From: Blastocatellia bacterium
GTDB taxonomy: Bacteria > Acidobacteriota > Blastocatellia > UBA7656
Reading direction: 5' to 3'
NCBI GenBank assembly: GCA_039648975.1
Contig: JBBWZK010000425.1
Span: forward strand, 272-64,271
Length of the DNA stretch: 64,000 bases
A program made the translations under genes and the position numbers. Of this stretch, positions 4,723 through 60,855 are shown one piece after another. Position 1 is the first letter of the stretch; each line of letters begins with the position of its first letter. The notes below the pieces were generated by a model. That model saw only the letters and a list, made by a program, of their open reading frames with translations, was not told where the DNA came from and made no database searches.

Positions 4723-5637
4723 ATGAACCAGGAATTTGCCGACGAGACGAAGCCGGGGGCGCTGGAAGAAGAGGCGTTTGATGAAACAGCGGAGAACGCT
4801 TTTACTTTGCGCGAGCGCGACGTTGAGACGCCCGATGGCGTGGCGCGCATCGCTTATGTCGTTTGCGAGCCGCTTGCAGAAGCGGGTTTCACCAATGCCT
4901 TCAGCACGCGACTGGGCGGCACCAGTCCCTTGCCCGAAGCGGCGCTGAACCTGACGAACTTCAAAGGCGACACGCCGGACAATGTCGCCGAAAATCGCCG
5001 CCGCTTTCTCAACGCCATCGGCGCGGCAGACGCGACCATCGTCACCGCGCGGCAGACGCATTCAACCGACCGCTGCTTGATTCAGTCCATCGAACAGGCG
5101 CGCGGCTTCCGTAACGAATGCGACGCGCTGATCACACGCTTGACGGGTGTGCTGCTCGGCATTCAAACCGCCGACTGCCTGCCTATTCTGATTGCCGATA
5201 CCGAATCGAAGGTGATGGCAGCGATTCACGCCGGCTGGCGCGGCACGGCCAGTCGCATCACCGAGCGCGCGGTTGCCGATCTGATGCTGCAACATGGCCT
5301 CAGCCCGCGCCATTGCATCGCGGCGCTCGGCCCGACAGCATGTGAGCAATGTTACGAAATCGGCGGAGACGTGATCGAGCGATTTAAGACGGAGTTCCGC
5401 TACTGGCCGAGCCTGCTGGTCAATTTCAAGGAAGGCGGCAAGGCGCATCTCGACATACGTGCTGCCAACCGCCAGCAATTATTGTTTTGCGGCTTCACGG
5501 AAGACAGCATTTATGTCGCAGACTATTGCACGATGCATCAGAACGATCTGTTCTTTTCGCATCGCTCGGAAGGCCGTAAGTCGGCTAGCGGCGCGGGCCG
5601 CTTGCTTTCCGTCATCGGTAGAATCGCGCAGGATTAG
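4723..5637 (+). CDS. pgeF: peptidoglycan editing factor PgeF / YfiH (DUF152, laccase-domain) family
   Basis: Motifs AFSTRLGG, IQTADCLPILI, AAIHAGWRG and a C-terminal FSHR. The start is placed at the internal ATG (MNQEFADE), because the upstream part of the ORF covers the repeat units. Confidence 0.85.
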   Translation: MNQEFADETKPGALEEEAFDETAENAFTLRERDVETPDGVARIAYVVCEPLAEAGFTNAFSTRLGGTSPLPEAALNLTNFKGDTPDNVAENRRRFLNAIGAADATIVTARQTHSTDRCLIQSIEQARGFRNECDALITRLTGVLLGIQTADCLPILIADTESKVMAAIHAGWRGTASRITERAVADLMLQHGLSPRHCIAALGPTACEQCYEIGGDVIERFKTEFRYWPSLLVNFKEGGKAHLDIRAANRQQLLFCGFTEDSIYVADYCTMHQNDLFFSHRSEGRKSASGAGRLLSVIGRIAQD

Positions 5638-9360: not shown

Positions 9361-9449
9361 GTGATGCGTGAAACGTGATGCGTGATGCGTGACCGAAGAT
9401 TTGCGCTTTACGCGGACTCTTACGATACATGATAAATCACGCATCACGC
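9361..9449. repeat. intergenic hairpin with arms made of GTGATGC heptamer repeats
   Basis: Left arm gtgatgc gtgaaac gtgatgc gtgatgc gtgac (9361-9393). Right arm aatcacgcatcacgc (9435-9449), which abuts the stop codon of the VWA gene at 9449. Confidence 0.8.
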
Positions 9450-11325: not shown

Positions 11326-12276
11326 TTATCCAAGCAGCGCGAGAAAATGCCTTAGCTCATGCGGAATCGGCGATGAAAATTCCAGGCGCTCGCCGCTGCG
11401 CGGATGCACGAAAGCCAGTTGCGCCGAATGCAGAAATTGCCGGCCCAGGGCGCGAATCTCTCGCTTCATCAACGCATCGCGCACCGTGTTGTCGCGCCCG
11501 CCGCCGTAGGCTGCATCGCCGACGACCGGATGGCCGATGTGCGCCATGTGAACGCGTATCTGATGTGTGCGGCCCGTTTTGATCTGCACTTTCAATAGCG
11601 TGAACTCGGTGTAGCGTTCGGCGACTTCAAAGATCGTATGCGCCGCGCGGCCCGCGCCGCCGCGCAGCACAGCCATGCGCGTGCGATGGTGCGGGCTGCG
11701 GCCCAGTCGCGCTTCAATCTCGCCCTGCCGCTCGGACATTCGACCGTAGACCAGCGTTACGTAGAGCTTGAAGACTTCACGGTTGCGGAACTGCTCGGAC
11801 AATTTTTCATGCGTCACATCGTTTTTAGCGACGACCAGCAAGCCCGATGTCTCTTTATCGATGCGATGCACGATACCTGGGCGTATGCGCCCGGCGGTTC
11901 TCGATAGCTCATTGAAGTGATAGACCAGCGCATTTGCCAGCGTGCCCGCCTCCTGCCCCGCGCCGGGATGAATCACCAGCCCTGCGGGTTTATCCACGAC
12001 AATCAAATCATCATCTTCATAAACGATGTTGAGCGGAATCGCCTCTGGCACGAGTTCGACGGGCGGCGGTTCAGGCAGGTCAATTTCGATGCGGTCGCCG
12101 GCGCGCACGCGATAACTCGATTTCGCCGTATGCTCATTGACCAGCACATCGCCGTCTTCAATCGCGCGTTGAATGCGCGTGCGACTGATGTCGCTGAGCC
12201 CACCGGCAACAAACGCATCGAGCCGCGCTCCCGCCGCATCAGAACTGACCGTGAGCAGTTGAAGTTCGTTAGACAT
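11326..12276 (-). CDS. rluD: RluA/RluD-family 23S rRNA pseudouridine synthase
   Basis: N-terminal S4 domain and catalytic motif HRIDKETSGLLVVAK. Confidence 0.9.
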   Translation of the reverse strand: MSNELQLLTVSSDAAGARLDAFVAGGLSDISRTRIQRAIEDGDVLVNEHTAKSSYRVRAGDRIEIDLPEPPPVELVPEAIPLNIVYEDDDLIVVDKPAGLVIHPGAGQEAGTLANALVYHFNELSRTAGRIRPGIVHRIDKETSGLLVVAKNDVTHEKLSEQFRNREVFKLYVTLVYGRMSERQGEIEARLGRSPHHRTRMAVLRGGAGRAAHTIFEVAERYTEFTLLKVQIKTGRTHQIRVHMAHIGHPVVGDAAYGGGRDNTVRDALMKREIRALGRQFLHSAQLAFVHPRSGERLEFSSPIPHELRHFLALLG

Positions 12277-12282
12277 TCAGAC

Positions 12283-12356
12283 GTGACAAGTGACAAGTGA
12301 CAAGTGACAAGAAAGATGGCAACCCATCTTGTCACTTGTCACTTGTCACTTGTCAC
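12283..12356. repeat. long hairpin with arms made of 4 x GTGACAA heptamer
   Basis: gtgacaa x4 ... aagatgg caac ccatctt ... ttgtcac x4. The stem is about 33 bp with a 4-nt bulge. It starts 5 nt 3' of the lgt stop. Confidence 0.9.
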
Positions 12357-12360
12357 GATC

Positions 12361-13182
12361 TTAAGAAACTTGAGCGGCGACATCCTGACGCTGCGCCGCG
12401 TCTTTGCTGGCGTTGCGTTTGCGCGCAATCAGCGTCATCACCAATCCGAAGACGAACATTAGAATGGCGATGAACTGCGAAGTCGACAGGCCAAGCAGCG
12501 AGCCGCGCGGGTCGTCGCGCCAGAACTCTATCGTGAAGCGCACGACCGAATAAATCATCATATAGGCATAGATGATCTGGCCTGCGAACTTGCGCCGCTT
12601 GGTCAGCCACAACAGGAAGAGGAAGATCAACAGGTTCGCAAAGGCTTCGATCAACTGCGTCGGCACGAGCGCCGCATCAATCGGCACGCCGGTCAACTCG
12701 CTCGCCTTTTCGGTGAAATGCACGCCGATCCAAGAAGTCGTCGGCTTGCCCCAGCAACAACCGGCGGAAAAACAGCCCAATCGCCCGATGGCATGGCCGA
12801 GCGCGATGCCCGGCGCAAACGCATCCGAGGTTTTCGGCCAGGGCAGATGCCACAGGCGCATCAGGATGACGCTGGCCAGCACCGCCGCCAGCAAGCCGCC
12901 GTAAAAGACGCCGCCCGAACGCAAAAAATCGACCGACAACATGCGCCGCCAGTCGCCGCCATAATCGCGCCACTCGGTGATCACCATCAGCGCCTTCGAG
13001 CCGACCAGCGATGCCGCCAGCACATACAATCCGAGATCGTAAATGCGCTGCTTCGGCAAGCCGTCGCGCGCTGCCAGCCGCGCCGTCAGCCACAGCGCGA
13101 GAATGAAACCGATAGCCAGCAACACGCCATAGGTGGCCAGCGGAATGCCCAGTCCGGGAATTTTGAATAGCTCTGGAAACAT
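12361..13182 (-). CDS. lgt: prolipoprotein diacylglyceryl transferase
   Basis: 273 aa, polytopic. MFPELFKIPGLGIPLATYGVLLAIGF... and GRLGCFSAGCCWG. Confidence 0.95.
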   Translation of the reverse strand: MFPELFKIPGLGIPLATYGVLLAIGFILALWLTARLAARDGLPKQRIYDLGLYVLAASLVGSKALMVITEWRDYGGDWRRMLSVDFLRSGGVFYGGLLAAVLASVILMRLWHLPWPKTSDAFAPGIALGHAIGRLGCFSAGCCWGKPTTSWIGVHFTEKASELTGVPIDAALVPTQLIEAFANLLIFLFLLWLTKRRKFAGQIIYAYMMIYSVVRFTIEFWRDDPRGSLLGLSTSQFIAILMFVFGLVMTLIARKRNASKDAAQRQDVAAQVS

Positions 13183-13195
13183 GCGAACTGCCTTT

Positions 13196-13356
13196 AGAAG
13201 TCAGGAGTCAGGAGCCAGAAATCAGAATGAAAAGAAGCGAGGCCCGGGTAATTCTAAAAGGCCGATGCAGGATCGTGCCTTCCGACATCCTTCATTGAAG
13301 TATGATCATTCGGCATTCCCAAGATTCGGGCTCCTGACTTCTGACTCCTGACTTCT
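13196..13356. repeat. inverted repeat with arms made of (G/A)AGTCAG-type heptamers
   Basis: Left arm agaagtcaggagtcaggagcc (13196-13216). Right arm ggctcctgacttctgactcctgacttct (13329-13356). The 7-nt periodicity extends about 5 units on each side. The right arm lies in the lspA 3' end. Confidence 0.8.
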
Positions 13357-13908
13357 AACTTCCGACTTCTCTACATCCCCTATCAAAGCTTCAGCCGCCG
13401 CCGCATCGGTGGCGCGCTCGGCCTGCGGAGTGATGAATAACTCAATGGCCATCAACGCCGCGCCGATGCTGATGGCGGTATCGGCGACGTTGAAGACGGG
13501 AAACTGATTGTCTTTGTAGTGCAACAGGAAAAAATCGATGACCCGGCCAATACGCACGCGGTCAATCAGGTTGCCGCAGATGCCTGCCGCCAGCAGCGAC
13601 AGCGACCACAGCAGCAGGCGATTGGCTGCACTGGTGCGCATCATGTAGACCAGCACGACGAGCACGGCAATCACCGAGATGGCGACAAATAGCCAGCGCA
13701 GCGCGCCGCTGTTGAGCATGCCGAAGGCGATGCCGGGATTCTGCGTGTAACTGATGGCGAAGAAGTTGCGGATCACATCAATCTCGTCGCCAATCTGCAT
13801 GCGCGTCGAGACGATATACTTGGTGAATTGATCGAGCGCCATCACGAATGCCGTGATGATAAGATATTTGAGTTTCCCCGCGCTCGCGCTGCCAGCTTCT
13901 GAACTCAT
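13306..13908 (-). CDS. lspA: lipoprotein signal peptidase II
   Basis: Motifs NPGIAFG and FPVFNVADTAISIGA. ATG at 13908 follows aagaggaagg. The C-terminal tail (EKSEVRSQESEVRS) is encoded by the repeat arm. Confidence 0.9.
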   Translation of the reverse strand: MSSEAGSASAGKLKYLIITAFVMALDQFTKYIVSTRMQIGDEIDVIRNFFAISYTQNPGIAFGMLNSGALRWLFVAISVIAVLVVLVYMMRTSAANRLLLWSLSLLAAGICGNLIDRVRIGRVIDFFLLHYKDNQFPVFNVADTAISIGAALMAIELFITPQAERATDAAAAEALIGDVEKSEVRSQESEVRSPNLGNAE

Positions 13909-14659: not shown

Positions 14660-17600
14660 TTATAACCAGCCTTCTTCGAGTTGGCGCACGCAGCGCGCGT
14701 CAATCGTCGGGAAGCGCGCGTCCGCGCCGACCGTGTTGCTCCAGTGCCAGCAGCGTTCGCACTTCGCGCCCTCGGCATGTTCAACTTTAACCGTTATGCC
14801 TGGCGCTACCGTCTCAATCAACCTGACATGCGAGACGATAAAAATTGCCGGCAAATGTTCCTCATACTTTTTCAGCAGGCTAAATGTACTTTCGGGAACC
14901 TCCAACGTGATCTTCGCCTCCAATGAAGCGCCGATCACTTTCTCATTGCGCATTCTTTCCAGTTCTTGTTGGACTAGCCCCCGCACATACAATAAGCCGC
15001 CTTCTCGCACGTCCCACTCTTTCAATAACCGCGCATCGCCCGCGTGTGCTTCGGCGTTGGCAAACTCCGCCAGGTGTACCGAAGGCTCGCGCTTGCCCGG
15101 CAAGCTCTCCCAGATTTCATCCGCCGTGAAGGCCAGCACCGGCGCAAGCAGCCGCGCGAATGTATCGACAATCTGAGCGAGCGCCGTCTGCGCGCTGCGC
15201 CGCCCTGCGGACTTCGGCGCGAACGTGTAGAGGCGATCTTTCAGTATGTCGATGTAGACCGCCGACAACGTCACCGTCGCGTAATTGTAAAGCGTGTGAT
15301 AGACGGTTGTGTACTCGAATCGCTTATAGGCGTCGATCACTTTGCGCGCCATGTCGCGCGTCGCCGCCAGCGCCCAGCGGTCAATCTCCCACATCTCGCT
15401 TTCGGCAACCGCATCGACTTGCGTGTCGAAGTCGCTGATGTTGCCGAGCGCATAGCGCGCCGTGTTGCGTAACTTTCGATACGCATCGACCAGCCGCTTG
15501 AGAATCTCTTCCGACAACCGCACGTCTTCCTGATAATCGCTTGATGCGACCCAGAGACGCAGAATCTCGGCGCCCGATTTATCCGTGACTTCGTTCGGCG
15601 AGATGGCGTTGCCCGACGACTTGTGCATGGCCTTGCCTTCGCCGTCCACCGTCCAGCCGTGCGTGATGACCGTCTTGTAGGGCGCGCGGTTGTGCGCCGC
15701 CAGCGCCACCATCAGCGACGAGTTGAACCAGCCGCGATATTGATCTGGGCCTTCGAGTTAAACATCCGCCGGCCATGGCAGACGCCGTTCGATCTCAAGC
15801 ACCGCCAGCGACGACGAACCGCTATCGAACCAGACGTCGAGAATGTCCGTCTCTTTCTTGAAATCCGCGCCGCCGCACTCCGGACACTTGAACCCCTCGG
15901 GCAGCAGATCTTTCGCCTCGCGCGCATACCAGGCATCGGCAGTGTCTTTGTCGAAGATGTCAGCGACGTGATCGATCACTTTGGCGTCGGCAATTATTTC
16001 TTGGCAGTCGTTACAATAGAAAGCCGGGATCGGCACGCCCCATACCCTCTGGCGCGATACACACCAATCGGGCCGTCCTGAAAACATATTGCGCATGCGC
16101 TCCTCGCCCCACCCCGGAAGCCAGCGGACATCTTCAACTTCGCGCAGCGCGCCCTCGCGCAACGAGTGGCCGTCGGCGTCTTGCTTATCCATAGAGATGA
16201 ACCACTGCGGCGTGGCGCGAAAGATCACCGGCTGATGGCAACGCCAGCAATGCGGGTAGCGGTGCGCATAATCTTCCGTGAAAACCAGCGCTCCCGATTC
16301 GCGCAGGAAATCGACGATGGCGCGATTCGCTTCAAAGACCTGGCGACCGGCGAAGTGTTCGACTTCGGGCGTGAAGCGACCGGCGTTATCGACCGGGCAA
16401 TAGACTTCGGTTTCAGCCACATTGAGCTTCTCATAGATCGGCGCGAGTTGCTGGCGATACTGCTGGCCGATGACGAAGTCGTCGTGGCCGTGACCGGGCG
16501 CAGTGTGGACAGCACCTGTGCCGGATTTGCCCGTGCCTTTCTTCTGCGCGTCCGCGACATCGAGTTCGGTTTCGGCGTCGGCTTCGCCGCCGAGCGTGAC
16601 GTGTTCGCCGACCATCAGAATCGAAGGCCGGTCGAGCCACGCGTGCCGCGCTTCGAGCTTGTCGAGCAGCGCGCCGGAAAACTCGGCGACCACCGTCGGT
16701 GTGGCAAGCGCGCACTTTTCGGCGACCGCCGCGACCAGCTCGCTGGCGACGATGTAAATTTCATTACCTACGTCAATCGCCGCATAATCGAAGTTCGGGT
16801 TGACACTGATGCCGACGTTCGCAGGCAGCGTCCACGGCGTCGTCGTCCAGATCAGCACAAAGACCGGCTTCCCGGTTGTAGATAAAGGATGATACCTATC
16901 TCTCAAAATCCTTTCGGTAACGTTATGTACTTGTTTTGCTTCTTCGCTGCTGTCTTCGTCCGATAGGGGCAACCCTTTCTCTGCCGCCAACCTCCGTTCC
17001 AATTCGCGTACCTGATCTTCAAGCAGCGGAAACTTGACGTAGATCGACGGCGAGGTGTGCTCATGGTATTCGACTTCGGCTTCGGCAAGCGCCGTCTGGT
17101 CATTGATGCACCAGTAGACGGGCCGCCCGCCTTTGTAAACATATCCGCGCTCGACGAAACGCCCGAAGAGCCGCGCGGTTTGGGCTTCGTAAGCGTTCGA
17201 CATCGTCAGATAGGGATCGCCCCATTCGCCGAGGATGCCAAGTCGCTCGAAGTCGCGCGTCTGTCGCTTCAAGGCTTCGGCAGCGTGCTCGCGGCAGATG
17301 CGGCGGATGGTCAACGGGCTCATCTGCGATTTCTTCGCGCCGAGCTTCTTGTCAACGTACATCTCAATCGGCAAGCCGTGACAGTCATAGCCCGGCACGT
17401 AAGGCGCATCGTAGCCGAGCATCGAATGCGACTTGACCACCATGTCTTTGAGAATCTTGTTCATCGCCGTGCCGATGTGAATATCGGAGTTGGCATAAGG
17501 CGGGCCGTCGTGCAGCACGAATATGGGCCGGCCCTGTCGCGCCCGGCAAATCTCGTGATAGAGATCCATCTTCTGCCAGCGCGCCAATCGTTCAGGCTCG

Positions 17601-17686
17601 CGCTGCGTGAGGTTGGCTTTCTGCGCGAAGTCGGTCTTCGGCAAGTTCACGGTGGCTTTCAAATCCAAGGGTGTTTCGGTTGACAT
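14660..17686 (-). pseudogene. ileS: isoleucine--tRNA ligase, interrupted by a single in-frame TAA (15758-15760)
   Basis: ORFs 15758..17752 and 14660..15712 are in the same frame. Motifs HIGTAMNKILKD (HIGH), KAMHKSSGN (KMSKS) and a C-terminal CERCWHW. The junction reads PWPADV*LEGPDQYRGWFNSS. Confidence 0.9.
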
Positions 17687-17695
17687 AACGCTCTC

Positions 17696-17831
17696 GATTT
17701 TGGATTTTAGATTTTGGATTATAAAGCTCCGCTTCGCAATCAGGTCGGACAATCAGGAAATGGCATTCCCTGAATCCAAATTCGCGCCGCGCGAAGCGCA
17801 TCATGCGCCAAGAAAATCCAAAATCCAAAAT
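17696..17831. repeat. inverted repeat with arms made of GATTTTG heptamers
   Basis: Left arm gattttg gatttta gattttg gatt (17696-17720). Right arm aaaatcc aaaatcc aaaat (17813-17831). Lies between the DUF948-like gene stop and the ileS start. Confidence 0.8.
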
Positions 17832-17956
17832 TGCAAAAGCACCTGACTCCTGCGATGAGGAACCCAGGTGCCGCTTGAATTGAGTCACCAGTCCATTTGA
17901 GACGACGCACAGTCGGCTGGCAAAGCCACCTTCACGTCGCGCCGGCAACTCGTTGG

Positions 17957-55452: not shown

Positions 55453-55585
55453 TTTTGGTAGTTGATCCTGGTAGTTGATCAATCAAGAGCGAGGCAGGGC
55501 TCGCCGCTTCCGATTGCGCCACTACCGTGACTTTTATAATCCGCCAATCCACCGGTCAGTTCATTCGGCTCTTTTGGGAATCCGC

Positions 55586-56638
55586 ATGAATCAATCCCGT
55601 CTGTCTCGCTTGACGCTCGCAGCGTTGCTTGCGGCTCTGCTATTCGTTCATCCGCACGCATCGGCGCAATCATCCGCATCGCCAGCGCGCCCGGCCTTCG
55701 CGCCGTCCGAGCGTCTTCAGGCGCTTGTAAGCAATGTGGTCAAAGCTACGGTTGAGCGCTTCGGCAAGGGCGGGCTTACCGCCGACAAGCTCGCCGTCAC
55801 GTTAATCGATCTCAACGACCACGAGCGCCCTGCGTGGGCCAGCCATCGCGGCCAGGAACCGACTTACCCGGCAAGCGTCGTCAAGTTGTTTTATCTGGTT
55901 GCCGCGCATCATCAGATGGAAACCGGCGAGTTGAAAGCGACGCCGGAGCTTGAGCGCGCCCTGCACGACATGATCGTCGATTCGTCGAACGACGCCACGC
56001 ATTATGTGTTCAATTCGCTCACCCGCACGACGGACGGGCCGGAACTGGACGATGCCGTGCTGAAGGAATGGCTGGCCAGGCGCAACGTCGTGAACCGTTA
56101 TTTTGCGAGTCTCGGCTTCGACAAAATCAATACCAATCAGAAGACCTGGTGCGAAGGCCCCTACGGGCGCGAGCGCCAGAGCCTGGGGCCGAATTTCGAG
56201 AACCGTAACAAGCTCACGACCGAAGCCGCCGCGCGCTTGCTGTTTGAGATCGTCACCGGGCGCGCGGTGACGCCGGCGCGTTGCCAGGCCATGATGAACT
56301 TGCTGCATCGTGATGCATCTCACAAATCCACTGACCCTGACGATCAGGCGACGCAGTTTGCCGGCAAGTCCCTGCCGCCGGGCGCGCAATTTTACTCGAA
56401 AGCCGGCTGGACTTCTGCGACGCGCCACGACGCCGCTTATATACGCCTGCCGAACGGCGCGCAGTATATCCTCACCGTCTTCACGGTTGACAACAGTTCG
56501 CAAGTCGATATCATTCCGTTCGTGTCACAACTGGTTGCCGACGCATTTTCGCGCAGGCCTGTGCAGGCCGATCTCGTCTTGACGAATGGCCGCATTCGGC
56601 GGGCGCATTGTTTTTACAAAGTAGCAAACAGAGTTTAG
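55586..56638 (+). CDS. class A beta-lactamase-like serine hydrolase
   Basis: Internal ATG gives signal peptide MNQSRLSRLTLAALLAALLFV. SxxK motif ASVVKLF. Confidence 0.7.
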   Translation: MNQSRLSRLTLAALLAALLFVHPHASAQSSASPARPAFAPSERLQALVSNVVKATVERFGKGGLTADKLAVTLIDLNDHERPAWASHRGQEPTYPASVVKLFYLVAAHHQMETGELKATPELERALHDMIVDSSNDATHYVFNSLTRTTDGPELDDAVLKEWLARRNVVNRYFASLGFDKINTNQKTWCEGPYGRERQSLGPNFENRNKLTTEAAARLLFEIVTGRAVTPARCQAMMNLLHRDASHKSTDPDDQATQFAGKSLPPGAQFYSKAGWTSATRHDAAYIRLPNGAQYILTVFTVDNSSQVDIIPFVSQLVADAFSRRPVQADLVLTNGRIRRAHCFYKVANRV

Positions 56639-56714
56639 CCACAGAGTCACCGAGACACAGAGAAATGGATTTCGAAAAAGAGACTGAGACTCTGTGTCTC
56701 GGTGACTCTGTGGC
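56638..56714. repeat. 25-bp perfect inverted repeat with 8-nt periodic arms
   Basis: gccacagagtcaccgagacacagag (56638-56662) pairs with ctctgtgtctcggtgactctgtggc (56690-56714). It starts on the last base of the upstream stop codon. Confidence 0.9.
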
Positions 56715-58353: not shown

Positions 58354-60855
58354 ATGATGAAACGATTCATTAAGCGATTATCAGGCGTCCCGCCGCAGGT
58401 GGCGATCATCCTCGTGCTGATCGGCATTATCGGCGCAGCGGGCGCGATTTTATTGTTCAAACATACAGAACCAAAAACCGATGCTCAGGTGCTGCCGCGC
58501 GCCGCGCGCCTTGAGCGCATGGACGGCAATGTTGATGTCGCGCAGGCGCTCAATCAAGCAAGCAACGAGCAACTCAGTTGGCAAGACGCGACCGTGAATG
58601 CGCCGCTCACGGTCGGCCAACGCGTCTTTGCGCGCGATAATTCGCATGCAGAGATTGCTTTCAGCGGGCGCAACTATGCGCGGCTGAATCCGGGCACAGC
58701 CCTCGACGTGCTGTCGCTTGCCGACCAGCGAACCCAACTTGCCTTGCGTAGTGGCTCGGCTATCTTCGATGTAGGTGATCTTACAAATGGCGAATTGTAT
58801 GAAGTCGCCACGCCCTGCGGCGCGGTGGACTTCACTGAGCCGGGACTTTATCAACTCGGCATCGGCGATGACGGCAACACCACCATCAGTGTCTTGAGCG
58901 GCCTGGCGCAGGTCGTCGGCCTCGCCGGCTCAGGCGAGATCAGCAAGGGCGAAGTGCTGACGCTTGCCAGTCAGGTTGCCGCGCAGGCGGTGATGGCCAA
59001 GCTTGCGCCGGATACGGCAGGCAATATCCTTGATGATTATTACGGCTATCGCTATCCGCACAAGTATGACGGGCGCTACCGCAATTACGACACCTATCTC
59101 GACAACCCTGACTATTATGACGCCTATAGTCAGTCAACCAGTTATCAGTATGTAGCCGAAGATGTGCCGGGCCTATATGACCTCGACGAATACGGCGACT
59201 GGCAGGACGTTAATGGGTACGGTCGCTGCTGGGCTCCGCGCGTCGAGGCCGATTGGTCGCCGTACCGGCAGGGTTATTGGGATGTCAATGACGTGTGGGG
59301 GCCGACCTGGATATCGAGCGAACCGTGGGGCTATGCGCCGTACCACTATGGCCGCTGGGCTTATGCGAATCAGCAACGCTGGGTGTGGGTGCCTGAAGAT
59401 TGCCGGACGAACCCTGTCTATGCGCCGGCCTTAGTCGCTTTCGTTCCCATACAGCAATCGCAGATTGCCTGGGTGCCGCTCGCGCCGGGCGAACGCTACG
59501 TGCCGCGTTACTACGATGCGAGCTTTGAGCCGCGCTATCTGGCGTCGCCGCAGATCGTCGAAGAGTACGTCAACGTGCAGCGCACTTATGTGAACATGAA
59601 TTACACGACAGGCGTGACGGTCGTGCCTGTGCAGGCGTTCACCCGGCGGATCGACCGGAATGTCATCGTGCCTACCAATCCGCAATGGATGCAGCAGGCG
59701 CAGGCGGTGAGCGATCCGTATGCGGTCGCCGGCGTGCGTCAGGTGGCCATGCAGGAAGAACGCGCGCAGCGCAAACAGGCGCGCCGCGAGATGCAGGCGG
59801 CGATGTTCAACAGGCCTGTAGTCACGAGCGTTGCGCCGGTCGTGCCTGGGCAGGCGAATCCTGCGCAGGCCTTGCAGTACCAATCGGTGACGGAAAAGCA
59901 GAAGCGAAACAAGCTACAAGTTGAACAGAGCGGCCAGGTCGTCGCCGCGCAACGCGCCGATGGCGTGCCGCTTGCCGGCCAGCAGGCGGCGCAACAGGCG
60001 ATGGCTCAACAACGCGATCAGCGCATCGCTGAGTTGAGAACTCGCCTGCAACAGGGCGACAGATCGGCTAAACAGGAATTGCGCCAGTTGAAGCGCGAAC
60101 GCCAGGAGCAGCCGGCAGCCGTTCAAGCGCCGCAGCAAGCCATGACGCCGAAACAACAGCGGCGCTTCGAAAGACAGCAGCAACCCGCCGCACAGCAGGC
60201 TGCGACACAGCAGCAGGCCGTGACGCAGAAACAACAGCGCCGTCTCGAGCGGCAACAGCAGGCCGCCGCGCAGCAGACGCAAGTCAATCAGCAGCGCGAG
60301 CAACGCCGCACGCAAAAGCAGGCCGAGCGCCAGCAGGTAATGCAACAGCAACAGGCGCAACGTGCCACGCAGCAACAGCAGGTGGAATCGCGCCGCCAGC
60401 AAAAACAACAGCCTCGCCAGCAACAGGCCGTGCAGCATCAGGCGGCACAGCAGTCGCAAGTCAAGGCGCAACGCCGCGCCGAGCGCCAGCAGCAATCCAT
60501 GCAACAGCAACAGCGACAGGCGGCGGCTCAGGCGCAAATGAATCAACAGCGCCAGCAGATGCGTGCGCAGCGTCAGCAGCAAGCCATGCAGCAACAGCAA
60601 GCCGCGCAATCGCAGATCAAGGCGCAACGCCGCGCCGAACGCCAGCAGCAACAGCAGCAAGTGATGGTGCAGCAACAGCGCCAGCAGCGTCAGCAGCAGG
60701 GCATGCAACAGCAACAACAGATGCGCCAGCAAGAGAAACAGCAGCGCCGTGTCGAACGACAACAGCAAGCCGCGCCACGCCCGCCGGCTATGATGGGCCC
60801 ACCCGTGCCTCAACAGAGCAAAGCTGAACGCAAAGCGGCCCGGCGCAATCCGTAA
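58354..60855 (+). CDS. membrane-anchored protein with a FecR-like region, a Trp/Tyr-rich segment and a long Gln-rich C-terminus
   Basis: N-terminal TM segment. WAPRVEADWSPYRQGYWDVNDVWGPTWISSEPWGYAPYHYGRW. About 300 aa of Q/R/A-rich repeats (KQQRR[FL]ERQQQ, AQRRAERQQQ). Confidence 0.75.
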   Translation: MMKRFIKRLSGVPPQVAIILVLIGIIGAAGAILLFKHTEPKTDAQVLPRAARLERMDGNVDVAQALNQASNEQLSWQDATVNAPLTVGQRVFARDNSHAEIAFSGRNYARLNPGTALDVLSLADQRTQLALRSGSAIFDVGDLTNGELYEVATPCGAVDFTEPGLYQLGIGDDGNTTISVLSGLAQVVGLAGSGEISKGEVLTLASQVAAQAVMAKLAPDTAGNILDDYYGYRYPHKYDGRYRNYDTYLDNPDYYDAYSQSTSYQYVAEDVPGLYDLDEYGDWQDVNGYGRCWAPRVEADWSPYRQGYWDVNDVWGPTWISSEPWGYAPYHYGRWAYANQQRWVWVPEDCRTNPVYAPALVAFVPIQQSQIAWVPLAPGERYVPRYYDASFEPRYLASPQIVEEYVNVQRTYVNMNYTTGVTVVPVQAFTRRIDRNVIVPTNPQWMQQAQAVSDPYAVAGVRQVAMQEERAQRKQARREMQAAMFNRPVVTSVAPVVPGQANPAQALQYQSVTEKQKRNKLQVEQSGQVVAAQRADGVPLAGQQAAQQAMAQQRDQRIAELRTRLQQGDRSAKQELRQLKRERQEQPAAVQAPQQAMTPKQQRRFERQQQPAAQQAATQQQAVTQKQQRRLERQQQAAAQQTQVNQQREQRRTQKQAERQQVMQQQQAQRATQQQQVESRRQQKQQPRQQQAVQHQAAQQSQVKAQRRAERQQQSMQQQQRQAAAQAQMNQQRQQMRAQRQQQAMQQQQAAQSQIKAQRRAERQQQQQQVMVQQQRQQRQQQGMQQQQQMRQQEKQQRRVERQQQAAPRPPAMMGPPVPQQSKAERKAARRNP

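Follow-up and report, generated by a model that had tools for sequence, protein, structure and literature searches.

Tandem-heptamer hairpins behind stop codons in a Blastocatellia genome and their probable relation to cassettes carrying a PF05635 gene

The window analysed here is a stretch of 64,000 nucleotides (nt) of a soil Blastocatellia bacterium (Acidobacteriota; contig JBBWZK010000425.1, positions 272 to 64,271), and the element under study is a hairpin built from tandem heptamers in its minus-strand gene cluster ileS-lspA-lgt-rluD. Between lgt and an rluD-like pseudouridine synthase gene, both on the minus strand, a perfect palindrome at 12282-12357 occupies all but 8 nt of an 84-nt spacer (Table 1). 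Its two 31-nt arms are 100% complementary, each consisting of 4.1 copies (100% matches) of GTGACAA or TTGTCAC, and an inner 7-bp stem (AAGATGG/CCATCTT) with the loop caac lies between the two arrays. Each arm is a direct tandem array; the units are not palindromes, and pairing takes place only between the arms. The stem is separated from the lgt TAA by 3 nt and from the rluD-like ATG by 5 nt, with gtctgaATG on its downstream side, no U-tract, and no Shine-Dalgarno sequence for the rluD-like gene outside the repeat. The initial annotation had described the four repeat units and the inner stem correctly but had placed the hairpin 5 nt, not 3 nt, from the lgt stop. The predicted RNA fold had an energy of -62.2 kcal/mol as compared with -24.0 ± 3.7 kcal/mol for 200 dinucleotide shuffles (z = -10.4), and no Rfam family match was found anywhere in the 64-kb window.

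Repeats of this kind were catalogued in the window's own genome (G000; 6.9-Mb assembly in 486 contigs, 85% complete), which was compared with four congener genomes (G001, G002, G003 and G004). Relatives of its Lgt protein place G000 in the Blastocatellia. Gene positions for the junction statistics were taken from a simple gene caller (5301 genes in G000), and the lgt/rluD junction was followed across Blastocatellia relatives, comprising the congeners and other genera. With a threshold of at least 3 copies, G000 contained 595 period-7 arrays, versus about 150 for period 6 or 8; a laxer cut gave 814 period-7 arrays with 95 canonical units, a dozen of which account for most arrays. The most frequent families were GTGATGC (132 arrays), GATGAAT (91), GTGACAA (60), GATTTTG (58) and AGGATTC (46), and genome-wide unit matches numbered 130-460 versus 0-1 for reversed-pattern controls. 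The resulting catalogue held 453 inverted pairs of tandem 7-9-nt arrays and 140 solo arrays, 76% of all arrays belonging to inverted pairs. The gap within a pair had a median of about 50 nt. A typical element measured 97 nt, with an outer helix of 26 bp (median; at least 20 bp in 86%) and a median minimum free energy of -53 kcal/mol. Hairpins of the same design were also made of octamers (GACGCGGC) and 9-mers (AGAGTCCAG), the genome containing 245 period-8 and 91 period-9 arrays. Towards the outside, the units degenerate into flanks that are rich in purines on the left and in pyrimidines on the right, and paralogues of some cores occur at other places in the genome. The mirror symmetry that variant units show between the two arms was small once a fair control was applied (0.77 vs 0.85 mismatches per unit, p = 1e-4), and strong symmetry was rejected as a property of the class. 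A shared design with many unit sequences, which had been proposed from five sites in the window, is thus found throughout the genome; the units are unrelated only among those five sites, since genome-wide every one of them is a multi-copy dispersed family.

Inverted pairs were located at 342 co-directional junctions (9.7% of such junctions), 38 convergent junctions (5.9%) and 36 divergent junctions (5.5%), and 7 of the 453 lay inside genes. At co-directional junctions the first paired base stood a median of 2 nt past the upstream stop codon, which was often itself part of a first, decayed unit, and the distance from stop to stem did not vary with how far away the next start was. In the 126 junctions with 40 nt or more of leftover spacer, 75 elements lay within 12 nt of the stop, versus 16.7 under uniform placement, and only 3 within 12 nt of the next start; anchoring to the stop is therefore not a by-product of short spacers. 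The enrichment after stop codons expected from the window was in this way borne out by the genome-wide scan, as was the lack of a U-tract, TTTT occurring within 12 nt in 5% of the 342 elements. The next ATG was less than 15 nt from the stem in 39%, and 15% of the genes concerned had a Shine-Dalgarno sequence, vs 52% genome-wide. A strict polarity was common to all families, with a 5' arm rich in G and poor in C (G exceeding C in 443 elements vs 7) and a 3' arm that is its complement.

Strong GC-containing stems that directly follow stops and are rare within genes would suit factor-independent or bidirectional terminators of an unusual type lacking a U-tract, and a palindrome would, as such, act in both directions. 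That reading is nevertheless highly improbable. Besides the scarcity of TTTT, convergent junctions are less often occupied than co-directional ones, the 39% of stems close to a start include cases within evident operons such as ileS-lspA-lgt-rluD, and the full-length copies described below need transcription through the 5' arm for expression of their gene. Intrinsic terminators were ruled out by the scarcity of U-tracts and by the junction types.

The same placement bears on a second explanation, namely that the stems are post-transcriptional devices selected by the host, which stabilise the upstream cistron, set cistron ratios, or unmask the start of the next gene and so couple its translation, the repeat nature of the arms being incidental. 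Stop anchoring far above the placement null speaks for it, as do the short distance to the next ATG and the paucity of Shine-Dalgarno sequences in the genes behind such stems. Precedents exist in the REP (repetitive extragenic palindromic) elements of E. coli, which act as stabiliser plus partial terminator (10.64898/2026.03.23.713779), and in intercistronic stem-loops of Clostridium, which set stoichiometry (PMC4423207). Selection on pairing in the RNA should, on the other hand, favour G.U over A.C among stem mismatches on the sense strand, and no such bias was seen (247 G.U vs 317 A.C); a sense-strand G.U excess was accordingly abandoned as a sign of RNA-stem selection. In the congener G003, where the same GTGACAA element stands between lgt and rluD with 3 differences in 76 nt, the inner stem is kept and one change falls in the loop, but the two substitutions in the arms are uncompensated. 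A split ribosome-binding site, with the Shine-Dalgarno sequence to the left of the stem and the ATG to its right, was tried separately and rejected, SD-like motifs being present in 22-25% regardless of the distance to the next start and in 15% of controls.

Comparison with relatives showed both conservation of sites and turnover of elements. At the lgt/rluD junction the arms are made of GGAGGCA in G004 and of AGTAGGC in G001, where the array supplies the lgt stop; in the close relative L001 the lgt TAG stop lies inside an AGTAGGC array (4790-4833). Other genera have either REPIN-like GTAGGGGCGGCC doublets or a bare spacer of 20-30 nt at this place. The doublets (GTAGGGGCGGCC...GGCCGCCCCTAC) occur at exactly this junction in L002-L005, L012 and L013, around 4820-4960, and different palindromic repeat classes use the same niche. 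Among 221 orthologous junctions compared between G003 and G000, 27 carried an element in both genomes, 7 in G003 alone, 31 in G000 alone and 156 in neither, a co-occupancy with an odds ratio of 19 (p = 1e-12). The families differed at 19 of the 27 shared junctions and were the same or nearly so at 8, and some sites, of 12-44 nt, are truly empty. Within a family, orthologous copies vary in unit number, as the unit-number comparison suggested by the initial annotation confirmed, and their cores differ in length and sequence; for arm versus core conservation only 4 pairs were usable, and arm identity is expected within a family and is not evidence of selection. Upstream of ileS, G000 and G004 carry GATTTTG arms, whereas G003 has a GTGACAA element with the core ATGGGACGCCATC, which matches that of the lgt/rluD copy. 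Whole elements, core included, have therefore been copied into already occupied junctions. At one and the same junction, congeners show gain, loss and replacement of complete elements. In 361 kb from other Blastocatellia genera, 23 arrays and 6 pairs, patchily distributed, were found; 20 genomes from other classes of Acidobacteriota, sampled over 394 kb, gave 3 period-7 arrays and not one inverted pair. One array at L012 (7015-7173) was unusually long, with 159 nt of variant-bearing ACCAGAA units opposite a short GTTTCTG array.

The conserved occupancy of junctions, together with the presence of 'AGTC' units at lspA/lgt across the class, again favours devices selected by the host. Against this stands the large number of junctions that are empty in a sister species without visible consequence, and the explanation does not account for the 7-nt units, the dispersed families or the PF05635 genes found within the same arms. 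Taken with the mismatch pattern, these points make host-selected devices unlikely as the primary explanation.

Turnover also bears on polymerase slippage in place, by which both arms would expand together around a pre-existing hairpin and no mobile element would be involved; for the excess of heptameric repeats, Rehm et al. 2015 (PMC4692102) cite slippage as a hypothesis (reference 33 in that paper). Variation in unit number between orthologous copies, gradients of variant units within arrays (e.g. L013 and L030), the decay of outer units into purine-rich and pyrimidine-rich flanks, and cores that consist of other repeats (REP doublets), as if the arms had grown around them, are all in line with slippage. 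It is nonetheless very unlikely to have produced the class, as one unit recurs at 30-140 unlinked junctions, families can be absent from congeners, whole elements with their core are copied to new junctions, and clean filled-versus-empty sites exist; nor does slippage predict a fixed polarity or an enclosed gene family.

Such a gene family was found between the arms of the full-length elements. All four PF05635 genes of G000, on contigs C216, C319, C124 and C329, lie between inverted periodic arrays of the same polarity, each directly after a host stop, and their arm families are AGGGGCT, GACGCGGC, GATGAAT and GTGGTGC/GTGATGC. In a survey of 64 PF05635 loci from 17 genomes, 52 had an inverted repeat around them, the arms having a period of 7-9 in 47 cases, as compared with 3 of 200 small control genes that were so bracketed. 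Co-orientation with a host gene ending a median of 51 nt upstream was observed at 49 of 55 loci, which fits a promoter-less cassette expressed by read-through. Protein and arms were found to vary together: at protein identities of at least 75% the arm units differed by a mean of 1.0 nt, and at identities below 60% by 3.0-3.4 nt. G003 contains, on contig C14, a full-length element of the GTGACAA family, located 5 nt after a host TAG and reading (GTGACAA)4-G-AGGAGG...ATG, a 120-aa open reading frame (ORF), and TAA-CATC-(TTGTCAC)4. The window hairpin and this element have common inner ends, GTGACAAGA... and ...CATCTT.

Unit matches in the whole genomes (given in the order G000, G001, G002, G003, G004) were 280, 5, 6, 0 and 5 for GTGATGC, 130, 62, 28, 460 and 297 for GTGACAA, and 166, 290, 110, 16 and 97 for GATGAAT. 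GTGATGC is thus abundant only in G000, which has the matching PF05635 gene, and GTGACAA is most abundant in G003, which likewise has its matching gene. A strict rule by which the presence of the gene means an expanded family was rejected: it holds for GTGATGC in G000 and GTGACAA in G003, and fails for GTGACAA in G004 and GATGAAT in G001.

Taken together, these results make it probable that the lgt hairpin is a gene-less, miniature GTGACAA-family copy of a lineage-wide set of cassettes of the intervening-sequence (IVS) type. A full-length cassette consists, in this order, of a G-rich tandem heptamer array, a Shine-Dalgarno sequence, a PF05635 gene of about 120 aa and an inverted C-rich array, and sits directly behind the stop of a co-oriented host gene. 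The encoded protein is predicted to be a four-helix bundle of the '23S rRNA intervening-sequence protein' type, resembling Avd, and the gene would have no promoter of its own. Short copies may have derived from gene-bearing ones through loss of the core, and copying between junctions could have occurred most likely by recombination or repair at fragile palindromes. In the polycistronic mRNA the arms would pair into a stem of about 26 bp that the host tolerates and that RNase III, by analogy with rRNA IVSs, might cut out. Alternatively, the stem may act between cistrons as a REP-like 3' barrier or stabiliser or as a coupling element (10.64898/2026.03.23.713779; PMC4423207), or a terminating ribosome might unmask the next start. 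On this interpretation the elements would for the most part be selfish or near-neutral, with no more than secondary effects on the expression of host genes. An RNase III gene is present in G000. The window copy, sited between lgt and the rluD-like gene and not in helix 25 or 45 of 23S rRNA, has no PF05635 ORF between its arms and is for that reason classed among the gene-less derivatives and not among the full members.

Several observations weigh against the cassette interpretation. The window copy has a core of only 14 nt and lacks the gene, and no PF05635 gene with GTGACAA arms was found in G000 (85% complete). G004 with its 297 GTGACAA matches and G001 with its 290 GATGAAT matches have no cognate PF05635 gene, so the gene is not needed for persistence of a family; its role in family spread is unproven, and the covariation of protein and arm units may come from physical linkage alone. 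For the heptamer elements no transposase or other mobility enzyme and no target-site duplication was found. Since G.U is not favoured on the sense strand, selection on the RNA stem is not evident. Finally, the tight stop anchoring and the fixed polarity with the G-rich arm first are not explained by a purely selfish model.

In one respect the elements depart from what had been proposed at the outset, namely generation or selection of hairpins as opposed to spread of one repeat family. Whole-element gain, loss and replacement and the PF05635 gene of full-length members speak against generation in place. The RNA roles put forward at the same time (stabiliser, attenuator or protein-binding site) may still apply. 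What had been excluded, the spread of one REP or MITE (miniature inverted-repeat transposable element) family, is excluded still in so far as no single REP family is involved; each unit is, however, dispersed in tens to hundreds of arrays, and since full-length members carry a PF05635 gene, the elements resemble in their behaviour a number of MITE-like families belonging to a cassette with a gene. With regard to the definition of a MITE (terminal inverted repeats, a target-site duplication and an autonomous transposase-encoding partner), the elements have inverted ends, direct repeats were not observed, and the gene-bearing partner encodes PF05635, not a known transposase. Neither a target-site duplication nor a conserved target motif was detected at flanks or filled-versus-empty sites, the flanks consisting only of decayed units.

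Mobilisation as REP/REPIN elements by RAYT (REP-associated tyrosine transposase, a Y1 transposase), or identity with G-quadruplex elements as proposed for GGGAATC in Xanthomonas, was also weighed. REPINs share the extragenic niche and REPIN-like doublets stand at the same lgt/rluD junction in other genera, PF01797 genes are present, and the 5' arm is G-rich. The search for a RAYT gene, which the initial annotation had advised, did find a gene of this type, but the best-scoring Y1 transposase gene (on contig C5 of G000), and the only one with inspected flanks, has a hairpin-plus-GMAATGT repeat at its borders, which again argues against one REP family. Heptamer arrays are, moreover, not individually palindromic, and four G3 runs occur in only 16 of the 453 5' arms, GTGACAA itself having no G tract. 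This explanation is scarcely credible for the class. Membership of a RAYT/REP system was rejected on the flanks of the Y1 gene (C5:5599-6075), which carry another repeat and not heptamers, and the G-quadruplex was rejected as a general explanation on the number of capable arms. Around this Y1 gene a hairpin-plus-GMAATGT...TATAG repeat with about 228 clusters genome-wide constitutes a separate REP/RAYT system, and REP doublets of the GMAATGT type were observed inside the cores of 12 heptamer hairpins and several 9-mer hairpins.

The heptamer repeats of Calothrix PCC 7601 (reported according to PMC4692102) are those named STRR (short tandemly repeated repetitive) sequences. Their original description reportedly dates from 1990, and a genome-wide survey of heptamer repeats is said to have followed in 2007. 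Bacterial heptamer repeats are a known kind of repeat, already seen in Xanthomonas, cyanobacteria and Coxiella, and the present finding is a new form of it. An over-abundance of tandem heptamers between genes is on record for cyanobacteria, Xanthomonas and Beggiatoaceae (PMC4692102, PMC4679880). Among published descriptions, that of inverted GGGAATC arrays in Xanthomonas campestris and X. axonopodis comes closest (Rehm et al. 2015, PMC4692102), in a paper that also treats GGGGAYT arrays of Nostoc and refers to the Calothrix repeats; next come the ORF-bearing IVSs of 23S rRNA. In Xanthomonas, as here, the units are tandem 7-mers, mostly in about 4 copies, and form 'convergent' pairs with the G-rich array first (70-75 per genome in Xanthomonas); they stand mostly between co-directional genes (about 90% intergenic in Xanthomonas), nearer to the 5' ORF (28 nt) than to the next one (160 nt), and sister species occupy the same junctions with variation in length and sequence, no function having been assigned (PMC4692102). 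The Xanthomonas system has one G-quadruplex-capable unit, whereas at least 20 unit families plus 8- and 9-mers are present here and 96% of elements are not G-quadruplex-capable; anchoring is tighter here (median 2 nt), the phylum is Acidobacteriota (class Blastocatellia), and the Xanthomonas paper names no enclosed gene family, which here is PF05635.

In the 23S IVS of Coxiella burnetii, located in helix 45, the terminal stem measures 28 bp, the tandem heptamers read GACAGAT and an S23p ORF is present; RNase III excises this element (PMC4990558). IVSs of Coxiella burnetii, Leptospira and others (Warrier et al. 2016, PMC4990558) share with the present elements the inverted-repeat stem and the tandem heptamers in an arm; the copy number of the 5'-arm heptamers varies between strains, and the loop ORF encodes a four-helix bundle of the same Pfam family as the cassettes here. 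They are regarded as selfish (PMC4990558). They occur, however, as single copies in rRNA helices, whereas hundreds of elements with many unit families, mostly without an ORF, stand after stops in mRNA junctions here, and excision by RNase III, shown for the 23S IVS (PMC4990558), is only inferred for them. PF05635 resembles the accessory protein Avd of diversity-generating retroelements (PMC10053308).

STRR-type heptamers of Nostoc (10.1101/2022.06.06.494920), TAACTGA repeats and REP/REPIN elements stand further off. Dispersed intergenic tandem heptamers with several unit families are likewise known as the cyanobacterial STRR sequences and as TAACTGA direct repeats in Beggiatoaceae, cyanobacteria and Bacteroidetes (MacGregor 2015, PMC4679880). 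As here, the units of these STRR and TAACTGA repeats contain stop codons, and many arrays stop just a few nt short of a start codon without a Shine-Dalgarno sequence; unlike here, where 76% are in inverted pairs forming long stems, they are described mainly as direct arrays, with one inverted pair only in the Beggiatoa genome, and they are anchored to the start and not to the upstream stop. REPs, bacterial interspersed mosaic elements and REPINs (Bertels and Rainey 2011, PMC3116915; 10.64898/2026.03.23.713779) resemble the present elements as extragenic palindromes co-transcribed with the upstream gene and as species-specific families at conserved junctions, REPINs being inverted doublets of similar total length, and in this bacterial class REPs and heptamer hairpins occupy the same junctions. 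REP units are short palindromes with a conserved tetranucleotide, in contrast to arms of tandem repeats; REPs are mobilised by the Y1 transposase that they flank, the associated gene here being PF05635; and REPs concentrate at convergent junctions (about 60% in E. coli, as compared with 8% for the hairpins here). Within the searchable literature library, no report of such elements in Acidobacteria was found, and none tying genome-wide heptamer hairpins to PF05635.

On both strands the G-rich array runs 5'->3' towards the centre of the element, and such a polarity would be compatible with a break at the centre and with arrays being added or copied at both of its 3' ends. A broader proposal, which we regard as possible rather than probable, is that PF05635 proteins, as Avd-like pentameric four-helix bundles, might be the sequence-reading factor of transposase-less hairpin cassettes. 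Each lineage of the protein would recognise its own 7-9-nt unit and would drive copying, repair or re-synthesis of the array, with the G-rich strand running 5'->3' towards the centre, at breaks behind stop codons. In that case this one system would have left its trace in the heptamer excess of cyanobacteria (STRR), Xanthomonas, Beggiatoaceae and Blastocatellia, and the rRNA IVSs would be its first-noticed members.

No mechanism or function has been established for bacterial heptamer repeats, and the tie to PF05635 makes an old descriptive puzzle testable. G000 represents an extreme multi-family form, with about 450 hairpins, one in ten co-directional junctions occupied, strict polarity and stop anchoring, in a lineage in which the hairpins are tied to a specific small gene family inside the same arms. 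For the annotation of Blastocatellia genomes, the elements account for odd C-terminal tails, stops supplied by repeats, and genes without a Shine-Dalgarno sequence behind long stems.

Table 1. Coordinates of the lgt/rluD hairpin, its neighbouring genes and further repeat-built hairpins (window positions unless a contig of G000 is named)
Feature	Position	Strand or location	Remarks
Left arm, c + 4 x GTGACAA + ga	12282..12312	minus-strand mRNA: 3' (TTGTCAC) arm	100% complementary to 12327-12357
Core, AAGATGG/CCATCTT with loop caac	12313..12326		second stem half runs into right arm
Right arm, tc + 4 x TTGTCAC + g	12327..12357	minus-strand mRNA: 5' (GTGACAA) arm	
lgt, prolipoprotein diacylglyceryl transferase	12361..13182	minus	PF01790, E 1.3e-53; TAA stop 12361-12363
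rluD-like pseudouridine synthase	11326..12276	minus	PF00849 + S4; ATG 12274-12276
GTGATGC-family inverted repeat	9361-9392 / 9436-9449	between two VWA genes, minus strand	left array 4.6 units, right about 2 units
AGTCAGG/CTGACTT-family inverted repeat	13194-13228 / 13324-13370	between lspA and lgt	83% complementary, 95-nt core
GATTTTG/CAAAATC-family inverted repeat	17696-17720 / 17813-17831	about 10 nt upstream of ileS start	about 95-nt core
Perfect 25-bp inverted repeat	56638-56662 / 56690-56714		loose 8-nt quasi-period (CACAGAGT CACCGAGA CACAGAG)
Octamer/9-mer hairpins	C329:2165-2642, C409:2910-3177, others	G000	

The four other window sites that had been named together with the lgt hairpin (9361, 13196, 17696 and 56638) proved to be real inverted repeats, although not all of them share its architecture or lie immediately 3' of a stop codon. 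The right arm of the 9361 element overlaps the stop of the upstream VWA gene, and its junction is empty in G003. At 13196, units related to 'AGTC' recur at the lspA/lgt junction across the class, and the right array lies inside the end of the lspA ORF; this ORF continues about 40 codons beyond its Pfam domain into the CTGACTT array (13306-13370), so that the units are translated. The placement behind a stop fails for the 17696 element, because the nearest called upstream stop is about 125 nt away; the GATTTTG family occupies this ileS-upstream junction in G004 too. Between the element and that stop, the DNA at 17832-17956 is conserved in G003 and G004 right up to the element and contains no called gene; it may be a small ORF or an ileS leader. 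The 56638 element, which begins on the last base of the TAG stop of an ORF at 55475-56638 (plus strand), is a perfect stem whose repeat structure is loose, and the tandem-unit architecture ascribed to it holds only in part.

Two further features of the window were noted. The ileS gene (14660-17752, minus strand) is present as two adjacent ORFs, an N-terminal one at 15758-17752 (664 aa) and one with the anticodon-binding part at 14660-15712 (350 aa), and this split is a frameshift or an assembly error. Tandem repeats of 39 and 78 nt, rich in CAG/CAA, lie at 60132-60716 and probably encode a Q-rich protein segment.

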